From Octopus vulgaris (taxonomy: Eukaryota): a stretch of DNA of 64,000 nucleotides. Under the pieces are notes generated by a model. That model worked only from the letters and a program-made list of their open reading frames with translations, was not told the DNA's origin and ran no database searches. This document shows positions 2,725 through 48,857 of this stretch, in pieces; the first letter of the stretch is position 1, and the number at the start of each line of letters is the position of its first letter. The position numbers and the translations under genes are program-made. The stretch spans positions 558,001 through 622,000 of the forward strand of contig OX597838.1 in NCBI GenBank assembly GCA_951406725.2, in the 5' to 3' direction.

Positions 2725-4106
2725 TTAAATGTAGTTGTGTATATGGGTCTGCGTATTTTCAGGAATGCCAAGTCCTAAAGTTTCCAACAAATGCGATGTC
2801 ACAAATGCTTTTATAATATTGTGCCTTGTTTGATGTTGGTTGGTGTTGACCGGAAATGTATTCTGATTGGTCAATTGTAAGTGGAGTGTTTAGCCCTAAG
2901 TCAGGCCTAATCAAGCAAATCTATGATCAAAGGAGTTCCAGTGATGCCCATCCTGTTCAATTAATCTGCTATAATCTATCGAGGAGTACATTACCCTATT
3001 AGGTACATCTGCTATTTCATGGAAGTTGGGTGTAGTTTGTGGGAGATTTTGCTGTTGTTTCTAGCAGGTTGAGCGACCACATACAGGTTCATTTCAAGTG
3101 TTTTTAACAGACGTGACTGGAGAGGACCTAATTGGAGGTTGAGGGCAGAGTGTCCCTCTTGAATGATGGTGGTGGTGGTGGTGGAGGGGTTATGACGGGG
3201 ATATGTAAGTAGGGTAATCAAGATTACCCTGTGTAATTAATGCAAAGTAGATCAGAGAGAGAGAGAGAGAGTAGAATGGCGGGAGAAAGGAAATAATGTG
3301 TGGATGTGTGTGTAGGTGTGTGTGAGTGGCAAAGAGTGTGGCAACAAGATAATGAAAGAGGGAAAGAAGGAAGAGAAAGAAGGAGAAAGAAGGAGGAGAG
3401 GAAAGTGTGAGGAGAAAAACGAGAGAATGTGAAGGAGAGGGAGGAGTGTAACGGTGTGTGGGTGTGGGGAGGGGCAGATTAAAATTTGAAAATTAACGAA
3501 AAATTCTGAAAGTAAAAAAAAAACTCAAAAGACAGTTTCTTTTGTTAGTTTTTTTCAAACTGTCGGCGATAGTTCGAGACCCCAGAATATAACTGGTTGT
3601 GTCTTTATTACCCCTCTTCCTCCCTTATGAATTTGACGTTAACACTTGAACTAGAATCAAAGCGGTACCAAGGTGGACTTACAAAGAAGGAATCTCTAAA
3701 TTATTAATTAATGTCCGGTTTTAATTGTTATCAGAAGCGAACGGGCTGATATTGTTATTTAGTCTTGGTCAGCCCTGACCCAGCAGACCTACAAGTCAGG
3801 ATTTTGCGTCTGTAACCATTCCTACTTTCATTTAGACATAATATATCCAGAAGTACCTTATCCTGTATGTCCCTCAAGATTGGTAGGATGCTATTTGAGT
3901 GAGATTTGGTTGCTATTTCAAGGAGATTGAGGTTCCGTGTAAATGTGTTTGCTAAATCTCTGTGAGTGTCGCAAATAGAACGTTTGTGCCAAGCATTAAA
4001 CAATAAGAACACCAGACAACATAAAACATGAGACAGCTACAGACATTGTCAGACATCATGTGACAACATGTTCTGATGTCTTCAGACGCCGTCGGCCATT
4101 ACTCAC

Positions 4107-4378
4107 CTGAACGTCAGATTCGTCTTCTCCCATTGCGATCCAGATATAACGTATCGCTTCTTTCTCGCATTTCCCCACGTATCATCCGGTAAAGTATCTT
4201 TATTTCCACATCGAGGTTTTTCCATCCATTCTATTGTCCGATGGTCAAGACGTCCTGTGAGGGGTAAATTAGCAAAAGCCTGGAATCTACGGATTGCTTT
4301 CACCTGAGCCTCTTCGCTCATCAGATTTTCCATCTCTAAACTTGGGCCATTAACGTAGCCGAACTCCATCAAATATTT
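4107..4378 (-). CDS. MMP: Matrix metalloproteinase (M10A) pro-domain exon, furin-activatable type; internal coding exon
   Basis: Translates KYLMEFGYV...AIRRFQAFANLPLTGRLD...WMEKPRCGNKD...ARKKRYVISGSQWEKTNLTFR. This gives the YL..FGY motif, the peptidoglycan-binding-like FQ.F..L..TG.LD motif, the cysteine switch PRCG..D (4196-4216), furin site RKKR (4154-4165) and the start of the catalytic domain W.K..LTFR. Acceptor is ctctctttccttcgtttcag| (phase 0); donor is AG|gtgagt (phase 2). The MMP subtype cannot be fixed from this exon. Confidence 0.96.
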
Positions 4379-42635: not shown

Positions 42636-42849
42636 ATTTGGGTATACACACGCAGGCATGTATATAGTATTTCATTATGCCTGTGTATGGCTAAAATTAT
42701 AATAATCCAAACACACATACGAACATTATAGACACATATATTACATATAAATAGTAGACATCAGTGAAATCTGCATATATATAGATACACATAGCCATAT
42801 ATATATATGTGTGTGTGTGTGTGTCTGTATTTATTAAAAGCTGACTTAC

Positions 42850-43041
42850 CATTCCTTTTTTCTGTATATTCGTTCCAGCACTCCTTTGAGTTCGCGGCTG
42901 GGCCGAGTCCACTGGCTGGCAGAATAATTGTACAACGACCAGCAGCACGAAGAGAAGGTATTTCGTCCAGGAACCGAACCCGCTTCCATGGTAATTAAAA
43001 CTGGACGATTTCGAATTGGAAAGCCGGTTGAGTGTTAACAT
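42850..43041 (-). CDS. MMP: MMP first coding exon, minimal version (signal peptide plus start of pro-peptide, 64 aa)
   Basis: MLTLNRLSNSKSSSFNYHGSGFGSWTKYLLFVLLVVVQLFCQPVDS-AQPRTQRSAGTNIQKKGM has a basic residue, a hydrophobic core and a plausible VDS|A cleavage site. A consensus gtaagt donor in phase with the pro-domain exon follows. Confidence 0.8.
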
Positions 43042-43739
43042 CGGGTTAGATTTGGAACATTGAATCCGCGGCGGCACTGTTGTGTTGGCGACTGGAAACG
43101 ACGGAGATTTTGGTAAGTCTGACGGAGCTGTGCCTGTGGGGGATAACATTGCTTCTACTACAGGAGGTGGGGGTTGTGGTGATGAGGATGCTGATGATGA
43201 TGATGGTGGTGGTGGTGGTGGTGGTGGTAGGGGTGATAATTCTGATGGTGTTTCTGATGTTGTTATTGAAGGTGGTGATGATGATGATGCTGTTGTTGAT
43301 GATGAGGATGTTGATGATATTGATGATGAAGATGATGATGGAATCGGGGCAGATGATGAAGAAAGAGATGAAGGTAGCAGCAATGGCTTTATGTTGGTGT
43401 GGGACTTGTTGAGGGGCGACGAGTAAATAAGGGTGTATACACTAGAGGGAGACAGCTGGGTCCAACGCTGGCCGTGTGTAGTTGTCGACATGTTGATGGC
43501 TTCCCTTTCTGACAGTTTTGCCGAAGTCAAGAACTGTGGAGCGGCGGCTGAGCCGAAGCTGCTGCTGCTGCTGTTTGTAGTTGATGGAGGAGTCAGAGTA
43601 AGATGATGAAGGGAAGCAGCAGCGGCGGCGGCGTCAGTTGGCGGAGGTGGTGGTGGCGATGGTGATAGTAGTAGCAGGGAAGAACAGCTGTCAGTAGGGG
43701 AGGCCGTCGGAGGATAACCCTCGCTCACATCATCACCAC

Positions 43740-43772
<33 letters not shown>

Positions 43773-44228
43773 ATACTTCCACCTTATTGTTCTTCCTAAT
43801 GTTGTTGTTTTTGTTGCTCGTGCTGGTTGCCGCCGTCATCGACCGAGAGGTGGCGCTGTTGGTGAAATCAGCTTTACGGTCTTCTAACTCTTGCCTTCTC
43901 CTCATCGCTGCTACTTTCTCATCTCTAATCTTGTTATTGCTATTGTTGTTGCTGCTGTTGTTGTTATTGTTAATGGTGGTGGTGTTGTTGTTGTTATTGT
44001 AGCAGTCCAAGTCGAGACCGAAGAACATCACCATTTCGCTCGCTTCTTTCTCCATCCGAAACTCGCTTATTTCTACACAGTTTTTGCTGCTGTTCTTGTT
44101 GTTGTTGCTGTTGTTGTTGTTTCCTCGACAATCGCAGACTCTGTTATTATCGTCGATTTTACTTTTATCGCCGATCTCGTTTATCTTCTCGTCGTCAACG
44201 CGTTTTCTATCGCATCTTTTGATACTGC

Positions 44229-44260
<32 letters not shown>

Positions 44261-45713
44261 TTGTTGCTGCTGCTGCCGTTATTGATGTTGTTGCGGTTCC
44301 TTGTTTTTGTTTGTTTCGTTCTAGTAGCAGTAGCAGTAGTAGTAGTAGTAGCAGTAGTAGTAGTAGTAGTAGTAGTAGTAAGTTCAGTGGTGACTGTAGT
44401 GTTAGGTTCAGCTGTGAAATTAGTTGTTTGTGTTAAAGTGTTATTAAACCCATCCCTAGATGTGCCATCATCATCACCATCGTCATCATCGTCACCATCG
44501 CCGTCATCGTCACCATCGCCGTCATCGTCAGCGTCATCGTCAGCGTCATCGTCAGCGTGGTGGTCGTCATGTGCAGTGAAGAGGCTGTCGTCACAGTTGT
44601 TGGCAGGCAGCGCGGCTGCACCTCCATTGATGTTGTCTAAACAGGCTCGGTTACAATAGCAGCGAGGAGGAGGAGGAGGAGGAGGAGGAGTGGTGTGTTG
44701 CTGGAGTCGATCGGGTTGTTGTGGTTTCGCTTCCACTTGGCATCGGCAATCCAAAGTTGTTACCTTTCTCATTGAAGGCAAAGAAGGGGAGGAGGTAACG
44801 ACAGTGTTTCTGACGGTGGTGCCGCAGTGGCTACGAAGAACCAGAGGACGGATAACGCCAGATGGATTACCACTGGAGTTCAGTGCTCTTACTACGACTA
44901 CTACTACTACTATTACCATCGCCGCCGCCACCACCACCACCACTACTTCTGCCACCACAGTTGTTGTTGTTGCCAACACTACAGCTGACTTGAAAGCCAT
45001 TAACAACTGTTTTATATCCGACTCCTCTTCAGCAGTTTGTATCTTTTGTTTGTAGCCATTGTTGTTGTTGTTGTTGTTGTCGTCGAAGTAATAATAATAA
45101 TAGTAAAAGTAATGGTGGTGGTAGTCATAGCCTCGATCACTATAGAAGCGACCGTTAGTAGTAGTAGTAAGATAAGGTGGTGGTGGTGGAGCCAGTTTTT
45201 TGCTTTGGTGGGGAAAGGAGTAGTGAAAGGCTTTAATTACCAGCTTCACTGCAAGACTTCCTAATTCTGGTTGCCAGAGGCAGGAGGCTGAGGATGAAGA
45301 TCTTTGTAGAGAATATAATGGCAAAGATGGTTGTGCCAGGGGTGGCGCTGGTGTGGCTGCCGTCTCTGGCTGCCATCCTGAACACTGGGATCTTCTCAGT
45401 TTTGATGATGTCAGCATTTCTCTTCGAGTTTGGTCACTTTTAACTGGCAGCCATTTGTTCCTGTATTCTTCCCTGGAGATTCCACTTTGTGTAGTAAATT
45501 CTTCGACCATTCCCTTTCTTTGTCTATTCCATTTTAGTTCTGCCAGCACTTTTTTTGTCTCTTCTATCCCACCCTTTGTCTCATCTACCCGTTTAAACTT
45601 CACAAACAACACTTTTCCACTAAACAACTCACCACAACTTTCATCATCGCCTAACGTTTCCCTTTTCAACATTTTTCTCCGACAGCGCGCTTTTTCTGCT
45701 CTGCTGCTGCTGC

Positions 45714-45777
<64 letters not shown>

Positions 45778-46431
45778 TGCAGCTGTGGTCATGGTGGTGG
45801 TGGTGGTGACGATATTTCTATTAATATTATTGTCTGCTTTTATAAGTGTCAAAGAGTGAGTCGGTTTACCATCAGCGACGTCTCGGTCGCCTTTGCCGCT
45901 GTTCATGTGGCTTCTGTTGCAATAGCCATCAGATCGAGATAACGTATTCGAGCTCTCTTCATGCGTATCCCATATCTCGGAAGCAATGGTCAGAGCCGGA
46001 CCCATAATACCATTTACAATGACACCGCTATCTCTACTTACTATGATTCTGTCTTCAGAATCAAGCTTACCAATGTCCGATTCTTGCAGCATCTGGTCGT
46101 CAAAGAAGAGAACTCTATGATGACCTGAAAGATACAAATGTTTGTTGGTGATATGTAAGTGACAATGATCATGATGAAGAGGATGATAAAGACGAGGAGG
46201 ATGAAGAGGTAGATGATAATTATGATGATGGTGAAGACGATAAAAACGTGAATGCCAACTTTGTGGAGAATTAACTATTTTAATCTCATCATTTGGTCCG
46301 TTTTTACCAATCATTGTCCAGACATTGAACATTGCAGCTTTAGGTTCCATTGTTCCGTCAATTGCAGCGATCGGATCGATTAATCTTCCTGTTTTTGGTG
46401 CTATTTTCTTCGGCAAAGAAGCCAACTGAGG
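42850..46431 (-). CDS. Long open frame (1194 codons) contiguous with the MMP signal-peptide exon; low-complexity, probably disordered N-terminal extension (first ATG at 46350, context acaATGG)
   Basis: ORF track 42697..46425 has no stop. It contains poly-N/S/T/D/P/V/H/Y runs, all from trinucleotide repeats, and no dinucleotide repeats, unlike the flanks. No recognisable folded domain. Confidence 0.6.
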
Positions 46432-47709
46432 CTAAGGTGGAGACGACGATGGAGGCGTTGAGGTCGGGGAAGTCAACAAGGAAGTTGGCGGCGGCGGTGG
46501 TGGTGTTGTTGGTGGTGGCGGTGTTGGTGGAGGTGCTGTAGGCAACGGAGATAATGGAATTTCAGAGGCGAGTGAAGAAGGAGGCGGGTAGAGTGAAGAG
46601 GGAGAGATAGATGAAGGTGATCCCGGAGAAGAAGAAGCAGACGAAGAGAAAAACCCCGAAGAGGAAACATTGAAAGTTGGTAAGAGCATGCGTGACAGGA
46701 TATTGTTGGTTCTAAAGCGTTGATTTATTGCTTTTGGCGAAGATGGCGCTTTCTCTGATTGCTGGGTCGAGTTCAAAACAGGCACAACGAGTGGAGTATT
46801 GGAGCGAAGCGACGAAGTGACTTGTTGAAGTTGTTGTTTCTGCGGTTTTGGTGAGTCGTCGGTCGGTATAGGTGTTCCATCATCGCTTCGTAGAGTTGAA
46901 TTTGTGTTGGAGTCAGAAGCAATCACCTTCAAAGCATGAGTCAGTTGATAATCGAAAGAGCGTCGTTGATCAATTGATGAAGCGTGTGTGGCGTCAGGCA
47001 GAGCGGAGGAAGTTGTTGGCGGTGTCGGTTGGTGTCCGAGTGAAGGAGCATGTTCCGGGGGTTCGCCTTTAACTGCTGTGTCAGAAGATGGCAAGAATGC
47101 AGGAAAGCAAGAAGACATTGTCTGCGACGATGCCGAGCCGGTTGTTTCGAGTGACGGATGAGATGATGGAGATATCAACGAAGAAGACATTGATAAAGGC
47201 ATTGATGGCGGCGACGTGGTTGACGGAGTCGCAGGAGAATTCAACGAGAACGACGAAGGACATGGACTTGACCTTGATGTCAAAGTTGATGAGGTGAAAG
47301 GTGACGAAGTTTTCTTATCGATCGAGACTAGTTGCGATAGTGACGGAGGTTTCCGCTTGCTGAGGGGTAATGTTGGAGAAGGCGCGGCTAAAAGCGTTGC
47401 TGACTCCTGAATTGAGGCCCCGGTTGATGGACGGGACGCGGATTCCGCATCGCTATGAGCTGACCCCGAATCACCAGTCGGGTTTTCAAGGACACTTGAG
47501 GAAGATACTGAGTCACGCCCAGAATCAGAACCAGGTTCCTGCTTACCCAAATTCTTCACTTGCATTTCACACTTGGAATCCTGTTTAAACTCCTCTTCCG
47601 CTCTATAATCGACTTTCAGTGTTACAGTCACAGCCCCTTCATCGACCAATTCGCCGACGCTATTTTCGGTTGCCGTGGAAACCGTCCGATCTAGACAGGA
47701 GGACGCCAT
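46432..47709 (-). CDS. 425-aa Ser/Pro/Thr-rich ORF in the same frame as the downstream long ORF, separated from it only by one TAG
   Basis: Starts in strong context gaaaagATGGCG (A at -3, G at +4) and ends ...CCA CCT TAG CCT CAG TTG GCT. The codon phase continues into ORF 42697..46425. Confidence 0.6.
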   Translation of the reverse strand: MASSCLDRTVSTATENSVGELVDEGAVTVTLKVDYRAEEEFKQDSKCEMQVKNLGKQEPGSDSGRDSVSSSSVLENPTGDSGSAHSDAESASRPSTGASIQESATLLAAPSPTLPLSKRKPPSLSQLVSIDKKTSSPFTSSTLTSRSSPCPSSFSLNSPATPSTTSPPSMPLSMSSSLISPSSHPSLETTGSASSQTMSSCFPAFLPSSDTAVKGEPPEHAPSLGHQPTPPTTSSALPDATHASSIDQRRSFDYQLTHALKVIASDSNTNSTLRSDDGTPIPTDDSPKPQKQQLQQVTSSLRSNTPLVVPVLNSTQQSEKAPSSPKAINQRFRTNNILSRMLLPTFNVSSSGFFSSSASSSPGSPSSISPSSLYPPPSSLASEIPLSPLPTAPPPTPPPPTTPPPPPPTSLLTSPTSTPPSSSPP

Positions 47710-48178
47710 CTTTTCGAGCCGCTGGGTTTTGCTCAGATTGAACTACTGGAAGAGAATTATTCTGTTATCCTTTCGTACCCCTGCCCAAACCAAACTTCCC
47801 TATTTTCTTTATTCCACCCCTTTTTATCTCACAATGTCTTATTACAGTTTTTGTTGTTAGCGTTGTAGTTTTTATTTTTTTCTTCGGTTTTTCTGTCTGT
47901 CTTTTTTTTTTTATATATATTTTGTCGTTTCCCTAAATTTCAGGTTTTAGTCTTTCGATGACTGGTTGTGAGAATGGATGATGTGGTTGATAAGATCGCC
48001 AATCAAACGAGGTGCTCTACAGTCTTCCCCTCCTCCTCTTCGATCACCTCCAATAACTAACAGAAAATCACTTCTTCCCTCTTTGATGTTTAAAAGGATT
48101 TTTCTGGAAAGAAAAGAAAAAAAGAAAAAAAGTTAATAAAATTTCAAAACCGAAAAAAGGAAGTATGTGATTGTTTGC

Positions 48179-48251
<73 letters not shown>

Positions 48252-48823
48252 GATGACTGTAATTCCTGCTGCATGACCGGCGATATTTGATCCCCGATTT
48301 AGTGTTCGATAGTCCCTGGTCAGACAGAAGTAAGTTCTAGAGTCGATAACATTGACTAAAACTTACAAAGGCGTTGATCCAGTGTGACAACAATCCCATG
48401 ACTAACACCAATAACGATTATATACACACCCACTCACAAACCTACAGGCTCGCGGGCGTGAATGTAAACGCCAGTGTGTGTGTGTGTATTATACAAACTT
48501 GGATACACAATTGCAGGATGGGTGACGTAAGCAGGTGCTGGCCCCACCTGCTTATAATGTACTGAATGTTGGAGTGAAGAGAGGTGGACGAGGAGCCCCA
48601 TGTGCTCTCACCCCATATCTTCTACTCGTCCTTTTCATCCTCCACCCCACTACGCCACCTACCCGAGCCTGCCATCATCTACCCTGACTCACCTCCCCTT
48701 CCACCTCCCCCCTCCCCCCACCAATCACTCTTCAAACCTCGTCACCACACACAATACAAACATTGGCCTTTCTGTCTTCTTTGGGTATGTGTATGTGTGC
48801 ACGTATGTATGTATATATGTATG

Positions 48824-48857
<34 letters not shown>

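Follow-up and report, generated by a model that had tools for sequence, protein, structure and literature searches.

A matrix metalloproteinase gene of Octopus vulgaris with a giant first coding exon and a conserved in-frame stop codon, a candidate site of A-to-I editing

A giant coding exon spliced in phase to a matrix metalloproteinase

The window analyzed here is a 64,000-nucleotide (nt) stretch of the Octopus vulgaris genome (assembly GCA_951406725.2, contig OX597838.1:558,001-622,000; G000:C25:558001-622000 in our naming), which carries on its minus strand the 5' part of a gene for a matrix metalloproteinase (MMP) with a giant first coding exon that contains a single in-frame stop codon (Table 1). 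Between the ATG at 47709 and the GTAAGT donor at 42850, the exon reads through 4860 nt, or 1620 codons, with exactly one stop; our codon count and frame scan agree in this with the first-pass annotation of the stretch, which had described a single frame of that length with one stop. The remaining five frames of the same interval contain 53-141 stops. In 5000 shuffles with blocks of 20-60 nt, which keep local repeats, the best frame held 58.8 stops on average and never fewer than 24, and outside this interval, open runs in the window and the fetched flanks reached at most 259 codons. All seven simple repeats inside the open stretch have 3-nt units; such units make up 20 of the 126 repeats in the intron (22 including 6-mers; 104 have 2- or 4-nt units) and 4 of the 50 in the upstream DNA (45 with 2- or 4-nt units). 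The few stops relative to the shuffles, together with the exclusively triplet repeats, indicate that the reading frame is constrained both before and after the stop, and a frame of 1620 codons is far beyond chance. The GC content at third codon positions (GC3) is not raised (0.41-0.42).

Twenty-one sequencing runs were listed, 14 of which, from four studies, were guessed to be of RNA type and hold 0.89-0.95 of the words. Four of the 21, one per study (X1, X2, X9, and X10), were compared with the window as contigs, which drop minor variants; their RNA nature is a guess, none being on record as RNA. With repeats left out, listed contig pieces account for 3581-3895 of the 4860 coding letters in each of the four runs, and the single length difference in any listed piece is 3 nt. 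In every run, a contig ends at 42850 with a loose end identical to window 4349-4378, the start of MMP exon 2, and the intron bin beside 42850 has no depth in three of the four. The spliced contig ends and the empty intron bin in three runs suggest that the runs behave as spliced RNA. The splice from 42850 to 4378, proposed in the first-pass annotation, is therefore real, with junction contigs in all four runs, and it is in phase with the exon of the MMP pro-domain. On the 5' side, the contigs of all four runs break at 48102 and carry 472 (three runs) or 500 (one run) further 5' letters, and the strongest acceptor score in 42900-48200 falls at 48103. Consequently, the 5.25-kb exon is the first coding exon and not the first exon, as had been assumed; at least one 5' exon precedes it. 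The ATG at 47709 lies in a strong context, with A at -3 and G at +4. No contig spans the entire exon, so that we infer its continuity over repeats (e.g., about 44256-44391, 45690-45817, and 43166-43240). Zero-depth bins occur at 43938-44121, bridged by the third X1 record with a constant offset, and at 44306-44489, which is unbridged. Contig depth at the 3' piece is 2.3-3.6-fold higher in X1, X2, and X9 and flat in X10, a pattern that was not used because depth cannot rank parts.

Table 1. Features of the MMP locus; positions are those of the window unless stated otherwise
Feature	Position	Strand	Remarks
Giant first coding exon, 5254 nt	42850..48103	-	Acceptor 48103, donor after 42850; contig pieces of 4/4 runs
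5' leader within exon, 394 nt, ATG-free	47710..48103	-	47709 is the first ATG of the exon
Candidate upstream 5' untranslated exon, GTAAGT donor at 48366	48367..48838	-	Inferred from contig overhang lengths; letters themselves not seen
Open reading frame 1 (ORF1), 425 residues, Ser/Pro/Thr-rich, no Pfam domain	46435..47709	-	Separate gene in O. sinensis (XP_029654201.1) and O. bimaculoides (XP_014768490.2)
In-frame TAG, codon 426	46434-46432	-	A at 46433 reads G (TGG, Trp) in X9, X10; TAG in X1, X2
ORF2, 1194 stop-free codons, low complexity (poly-N, -P, -D, -T, -S, -V)	42850..46431	-	No Pfam match over cut-off
Second A>G site, M460V	46332	-	X9, X10, on contigs that also carry the stop change
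Third A>G site, D898G	45017	-	X10 only
Hydrophobic stretch, residues 901-940, poly-Val	44890..45009	-	Kyte-Doolittle 19-mer means 1.44 and 3.72
Signal-peptide-like segment, residues 1583-1603	42901..42963	-	Kyte-Doolittle 1.95
MMP exon 2: pro-domain, PRCG cysteine switch, RKKR site	4107..4378	-	Seven more exons at G000:C25:537408-531089, outside the window

The body of the enzyme is that of an M10A MMP. The O. sinensis RefSeq protein XP_029650865.2 can be placed over its full 520 residues, with 0 mismatches, on eight exons of the O. vulgaris assembly, and this model starts inside exon 2, without a signal peptide. That protein (P0001) matches Peptidase_M10 (PF00413) with 209 bits and contains HExxHxxGxxH and the Met-turn; the pro-domain matches PF01471 at the cut-off and carries the PRCG cysteine switch, the RKKR furin-type site follows the pro-domain, and four hemopexin repeats are present. 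By inspection, this furin site and a hydrophobic C-terminal tail lacking a cytosolic part place the protein with MMPs anchored by glycosylphosphatidylinositol (GPI). A signal-like segment lies at residues 1583-1603, and its position relative to the N-terminus hangs on the start codon. Hydrophobicity and the splice bear out the earlier description of the end of the frame as a signal-peptide-like segment joined in phase to the pro-domain exon, and, judged by eye, cleavage may follow Ser1602 or Ala1603. With the RKKR site and this cleavable-looking signal, the mature enzyme would lose the extension. The mature enzyme is thus probably furin-cut and GPI-anchored rather than a type II membrane MMP, as the first-pass annotation had it; the RKKR site, the C-terminal tail, and the cleavable-looking internal segment speak against that class, and a type II form would be at most a biosynthetic stage. 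The four hemopexin repeats and the two hydrophobic regions in the extension also set the protein apart from MMP23-like type II MMPs. The second of these regions, residues 901-940, was overlooked earlier; it is more strongly hydrophobic than residues 1583-1603 and could form a membrane hairpin.

The in-frame stop, its A>G difference, and its conservation

The genome reads TAG at codon 426, and TGG was found in two of the four RNA-type assemblies, from two studies, the genome and the assemblies representing different individuals. Contigs of all four runs cross the stop unbroken and without a gap. Because contigs drop minor variants, most molecules probably carry TGG in X9 and X10, and TAG in X1 and X2. 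Six substitutions relative to the genome were listed across the contigs of the four runs. In X9 and X10, all three non-fixed substitutions are A>G on the transcript strand, with a chance probability of ~0.005 at an assumed 1/6 per class of single-nucleotide polymorphism, or 0.03 without the stop site. Two further positions, 43665 (S1349P) and 44780 (L977S), show T>C on the transcript in all four runs; since S1349P equals the O. sinensis residue, both are likely private alleles of the assembled animal. A low-depth insertion row inside a repeat was set aside. The O. sinensis genome model retains the A at 46332 (M460). The stop site forms the triplet U-A-G, which the available passages of one study report as preferred by metazoan ADARs (PMC4817773); likewise, in the parts available of two further studies, linked editing is described as common in cephalopods (PMC5850729) and strong recoding as enriched in neural tissue (PMC9068888). 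Judging from these sequence comparisons, the A>G difference at the stop is likely adenosine-to-inosine (A-to-I) editing rather than an allele. An assembly error behind the stop was rejected, as the ORFs of relatives end at the same residue and X1 and X2 read TAG, and so was a hidden frameshift, with no insertion or deletion row nearby and contigs crossing without gaps. As a separate observation, the A>G change at 46332 removes an in-frame AUG (M460) shortly after the stop.

ORF1 ends at the same residue in O. sinensis (XP_029654201.1, from which it differs at 1 of 425 residues), in O. bimaculoides (XP_014768490.1/.2; 93%), and in a Logan protein (85%), which indicates that the stop position is ancestral. 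The last 70 residues before the stop are invariant in two distant relatives (0/68 vs 48/350, p=2e-4; 0/70 vs 25/307, p=0.007), with the boundary at 70 residues chosen after viewing the alignment and residues 143-186 likewise invariant. Raised conservation around conserved coleoid editing sites is described in the accessible part of an earlier study (PMC5705066). When 1.84 billion representatives were searched by HMMER with residues 1-830, six matches emerged: ORF1 itself, the O. sinensis model XP_036354541.1, and four weak low-complexity matches, which were dropped. The O. sinensis model, which corresponds to ORF2, starts at M454 and shares the donor at 42850; its alignment has a one-residue gap and 570 identities over 575 residues. 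Thus, the downstream frame was seen in one relative, over 575 of its 1194 residues, in a very close species. This model and ORF1 share a 27-kb contig that does not include the MMP body, hence the split annotation. Insertions and deletions, both against relatives and in the contigs, are whole codons. As at a stop-loss editing site, then, UAG stands in the genome and UGG in RNA (of different individuals), the ORF end is kept in three other sources, and the downstream frame is open in O. sinensis. An origin from a transposon or paralogue was considered and rejected: in the O. vulgaris assembly, matches to a 214-residue fragment of ORF2 and to 801 nt from the 5' part were both confined to this locus, the match counts being lower bounds.

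A proposed editing-gated precursor and its alternatives

We favor, with a probability of about 0.5, a reading in which A-to-I stop-loss editing joins the 425-residue ORF1, the 1194-codon ORF2, and the MMP body into a precursor of 2143 residues. ADAR would convert the conserved UAG to UGG (Trp). Unedited messenger RNA (mRNA) would yield only the 425-residue Ser/Pro-rich protein, and its stop, 3582 nt before the next junction, would likely act as a decay signal. Edited mRNA would be translated through into the precursor, whose long disordered N-terminal part may stay in the cytosol; segment 1583-1603 would move the MMP into the endoplasmic reticulum, and signal peptidase and furin could release an ordinary GPI-anchored enzyme. 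A single membrane pass at residues 922-940 would leave the MMP in the cytosol, and a working precursor therefore needs residues 901-940 as a hairpin or outside the membrane. Editing could potentially serve as an on-switch or a dial for protease output, probably in a tissue-dependent manner. Since cleavage at RKKR would free the enzyme anyway, the extension most likely sets the amount of MMP and does not alter the mature enzyme. The strict form of this proposal, in which MMP is made from this mRNA only after editing and the unedited mRNA encodes a separate 425-residue protein, is tentative. The very long N-terminal extension suggested in the first-pass annotation is plausible, given one long, transcribed, frame-constrained, and in-phase exon; what had escaped that annotation was the conservation of the single stop and its TGG reading in two of the four RNA assemblies, which points to editing as the gate.

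Several observations weigh against the editing-gated precursor. Deep squid proteomics contained no stop-to-Trp event in the portion of the study available (bioRxiv 10.64898/2025.12.15.694494), which lowers the prior that such edits yield protein. A strong RNA duplex around the UAG was not found by folding (z = +1.31; 93 of 100 shuffles fold equally well), and a search for duplex partners within the exon gave simple repeats as the best partners and only a 4-bp hairpin at the stop. The 45017 site has an unfavorable 5' G. X1 and X2 keep the stop as the majority form at depth 58-120, which fits poorly with efficient decay of unedited mRNA. The runs are RNA by guess only and carry no tissue information, and their contigs do not come from the animal sequenced as DNA, so that an allele would look alike; moreover, an A>T change on the transcript at 44773 (X1 only) and the two fixed T>C changes demonstrate that ordinary polymorphism is present. 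Conservation of the stop was read from the position of the ORF end and not from the codon letters of relatives. M454 stands in a strong context, the TAG itself is a passable splice acceptor, and the presence of two hydrophobic regions makes the topology harder to interpret. Beyond octopuses, no relative was recovered by HMMER with residues 1-830, in the ESM Atlas (no usable match), or by a word search with ORF2 (nothing returned, the search being crowded by low complexity and limited to 656-2090 residues, below the 2143-residue form), a negative that is weak evidence for low-complexity sequence.

The strongest rival is a downstream start, a serious contender that we regard as less likely. Here, the locus would make two proteins: ORF1 would be separate, the MMP precursor would begin at M454 (1690 residues) or, from another promoter, at M1521 or M1557, and editing of the stop would be real and incidental. 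M454, the first ATG of ORF2 (46350), could be reached by re-initiation or by a 5' exon spliced into the AG at 46431 or 46425, and even then 1129 residues would precede the signal segment of the MMP. This start lies 81 nt past the stop with A at -3 and G at +4, it is where the O. sinensis ORF2 model begins, and the TAG (46431) and the next CAG (46425) are among the ten best acceptors of the region. The abundance of MMP-linked transcripts keeping the stop in X1 and X2 and the lack of stop-to-Trp events in the available squid proteomics point in the same direction. However, ORF1 and ORF2 share one frame in which the 27 codons up to M454 are open, re-initiation after an ORF of 425 codons is poor in eukaryotes, and no joint or contig break at 46431 or 46425 appears among the loose ends listed (24 of 163). 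As for M1521 and M1557, 82 AUGs precede 43041 within the exon and no good acceptor lies nearby, which makes this form unreachable by scanning and dependent on an unseen promoter. The conventional secreted form from the ATG at 43041, raised in the first-pass annotation, is opposed by the same 82 AUGs and would need another promoter or acceptor, of which we saw no sign.

The remaining explanations concern the nature of TGG and of the frame itself. That TAG/TGG is a DNA polymorphism, with a stop-loss allele on a haplotype bearing two more A>G changes, is unlikely. The changes at 46433 and 46332 do co-occur in the same two runs, ordinary alleles such as S1349P are present in all four, the RNA and DNA come from different animals, and no duplex was found; nevertheless, an allele would have to combine two or three derived changes that are all of the A>G class on the transcript, at positions where relatives have the stop and an A (46332), and it leaves a conserved stop inside a long open frame unexplained. 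Ribosomal read-through of the stop, with or without editing, would account for MMP-linked transcripts that retain UAG in X1 and X2, and the base after the stop is C, which is a leaky context. We consider read-through quite improbable, given that the RNA itself reads UGG in two of the four runs and that no stimulatory structure rose above shuffles. It is hardly credible that the exon is an untranslated leader, long and full of triplet repeats, whose open frame arose as a by-product: one stop against at least 24 in 5000 shuffles, repeats of triplet units only, whole-codon insertions and deletions, and the phase shared with the MMP all argue otherwise, despite the low complexity, the lack of a domain, the GC3 of 0.41-0.42, and the lack of relatives beyond octopuses.

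Relation to known systems and further features of the locus

MMP23 has a type II signal anchor with a short cytosolic tail and no hemopexin domain. The octopus protein resembles it in an internal hydrophobic segment before the pro-domain and in furin release, and differs in its four hemopexin repeats and GPI-like tail. Among M10A MMPs, the vertebrate MT4- and MT6-MMP are GPI-anchored. So are Drosophila Mmp2 and Mmp1-PC, according to the part of the source available (PMC5353688), and the octopus protein shares with these a pro-domain with cysteine switch, a furin-type site, catalytic and hemopexin domains, and a hydrophobic C-terminal tail. Unlike GPI-anchored MMPs with an N-terminal signal, its signal-like segment lies behind about 1580 codons and an internal stop.

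At the amber/W site of hepatitis delta virus, ADAR turns UAG into a Trp codon and thereby sets which protein is made, and engineered ADAR stop-codon switches reportedly use the same conversion to control the protein made. In contrast to the octopus stop, for which no duplex was found, these systems, of viral or synthetic origin, depend on a defined duplex. In Fusarium graminearum, FgDBF2 is said to be a further case of stop editing. For PUK1 and 69 similar genes of that fungus, stop-loss or premature-stop A-to-I editing is described in the available passages of PMC4817773. As far as those passages go, the likeness lies in a conserved in-frame UAG that some RNA samples show as UGG, in condition-specific editing, and in a gene split or mis-annotated by pipelines. 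In Fusarium, however, editing does not depend on ADAR, and its effect is to restore a Trp within a conserved domain or to append a C-terminal tail. The octopus stop is placed in a disordered extension at the N-terminus, with 1157 codons still to come before the signal segment, and would act as a gate for an entire secreted protease. Closer in lineage, edit, and logic are UAG>UGG events joining adjacent ORFs, which coleoid editome pipelines handle, as the accessible portions of two studies indicate (PMC8382921; stop-loss allowed for, PMC4384741). The passages available of PMC8382921 and one supplement file did not name a gene of this kind, and the rule given there covers stops within regions similar to Swiss-Prot entries, so that the upstream octopus stop likely falls outside it.

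The feature is real, and stop-loss editing is already known in fungi; this locus and the extension were not found described. Our literature search gave no paper on the locus or on an MMP with such an extension, the main coleoid editing tables lying outside its coverage. Whether coleoid editing is adaptive or noise is debated, and nearly all studied cases swap one residue. A conserved stop opened by editing, if true, would be an all-or-none case open to direct testing and linked to a class of enzymes that remodel the extracellular matrix, a natural ADAR-operated gene switch in an animal in which editing decides whether a protease exists and not the identity of one residue. Even without editing, the locus would hold an MMP in which >1100 residues of conserved coding sequence precede the signal segment, and the annotation is corrected, as RefSeq splits the O. 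sinensis locus into three genes with an MMP model devoid of a signal peptide.

The candidate leader exon upstream of the giant exon probably ends at 48367. The 472 letters counted from the donor at 48366 end inside an ATAC repeat, like other contig ends, and an older O. bimaculoides gene model uses 48415-48368. Between 48367 and 48838 lie seven AUGs opening ORFs of 2-55 codons, which may regulate translation at an additional level.

The O. sinensis ORF2 model contains three in-frame introns (46259-46125, about 45868-45287, and about 45240-44185) that have GT-AG ends here as well. They were set aside as model artefacts or minor forms because RNA contigs cross the first and enter or partly cross the other two without any listed joint; the acceptor of the third lacks a pyrimidine tract. 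The first is a 135-nt block on the minus strand that encodes an odd His-rich stretch, is cut out in the O. sinensis model, and is kept in the contigs of all four runs; it could be an exitron or an artefact of the model.

Intron 1 of the MMP gene (window 4379-42849) measures 38.5 kb and intron 2 ~24.7 kb, and the last seven exons lie within 6.4 kb. A 1096-nt contig of X10 covers the start of intron 1 (42650-42768) at ~1/10 of the exon depth and represents either unspliced RNA or DNA in that run. Further clusters of M10 peptidase genes are located at G000:C25:9.63-9.75 Mb and C16:4.58-4.76 Mb (26 exon matches genome-wide).

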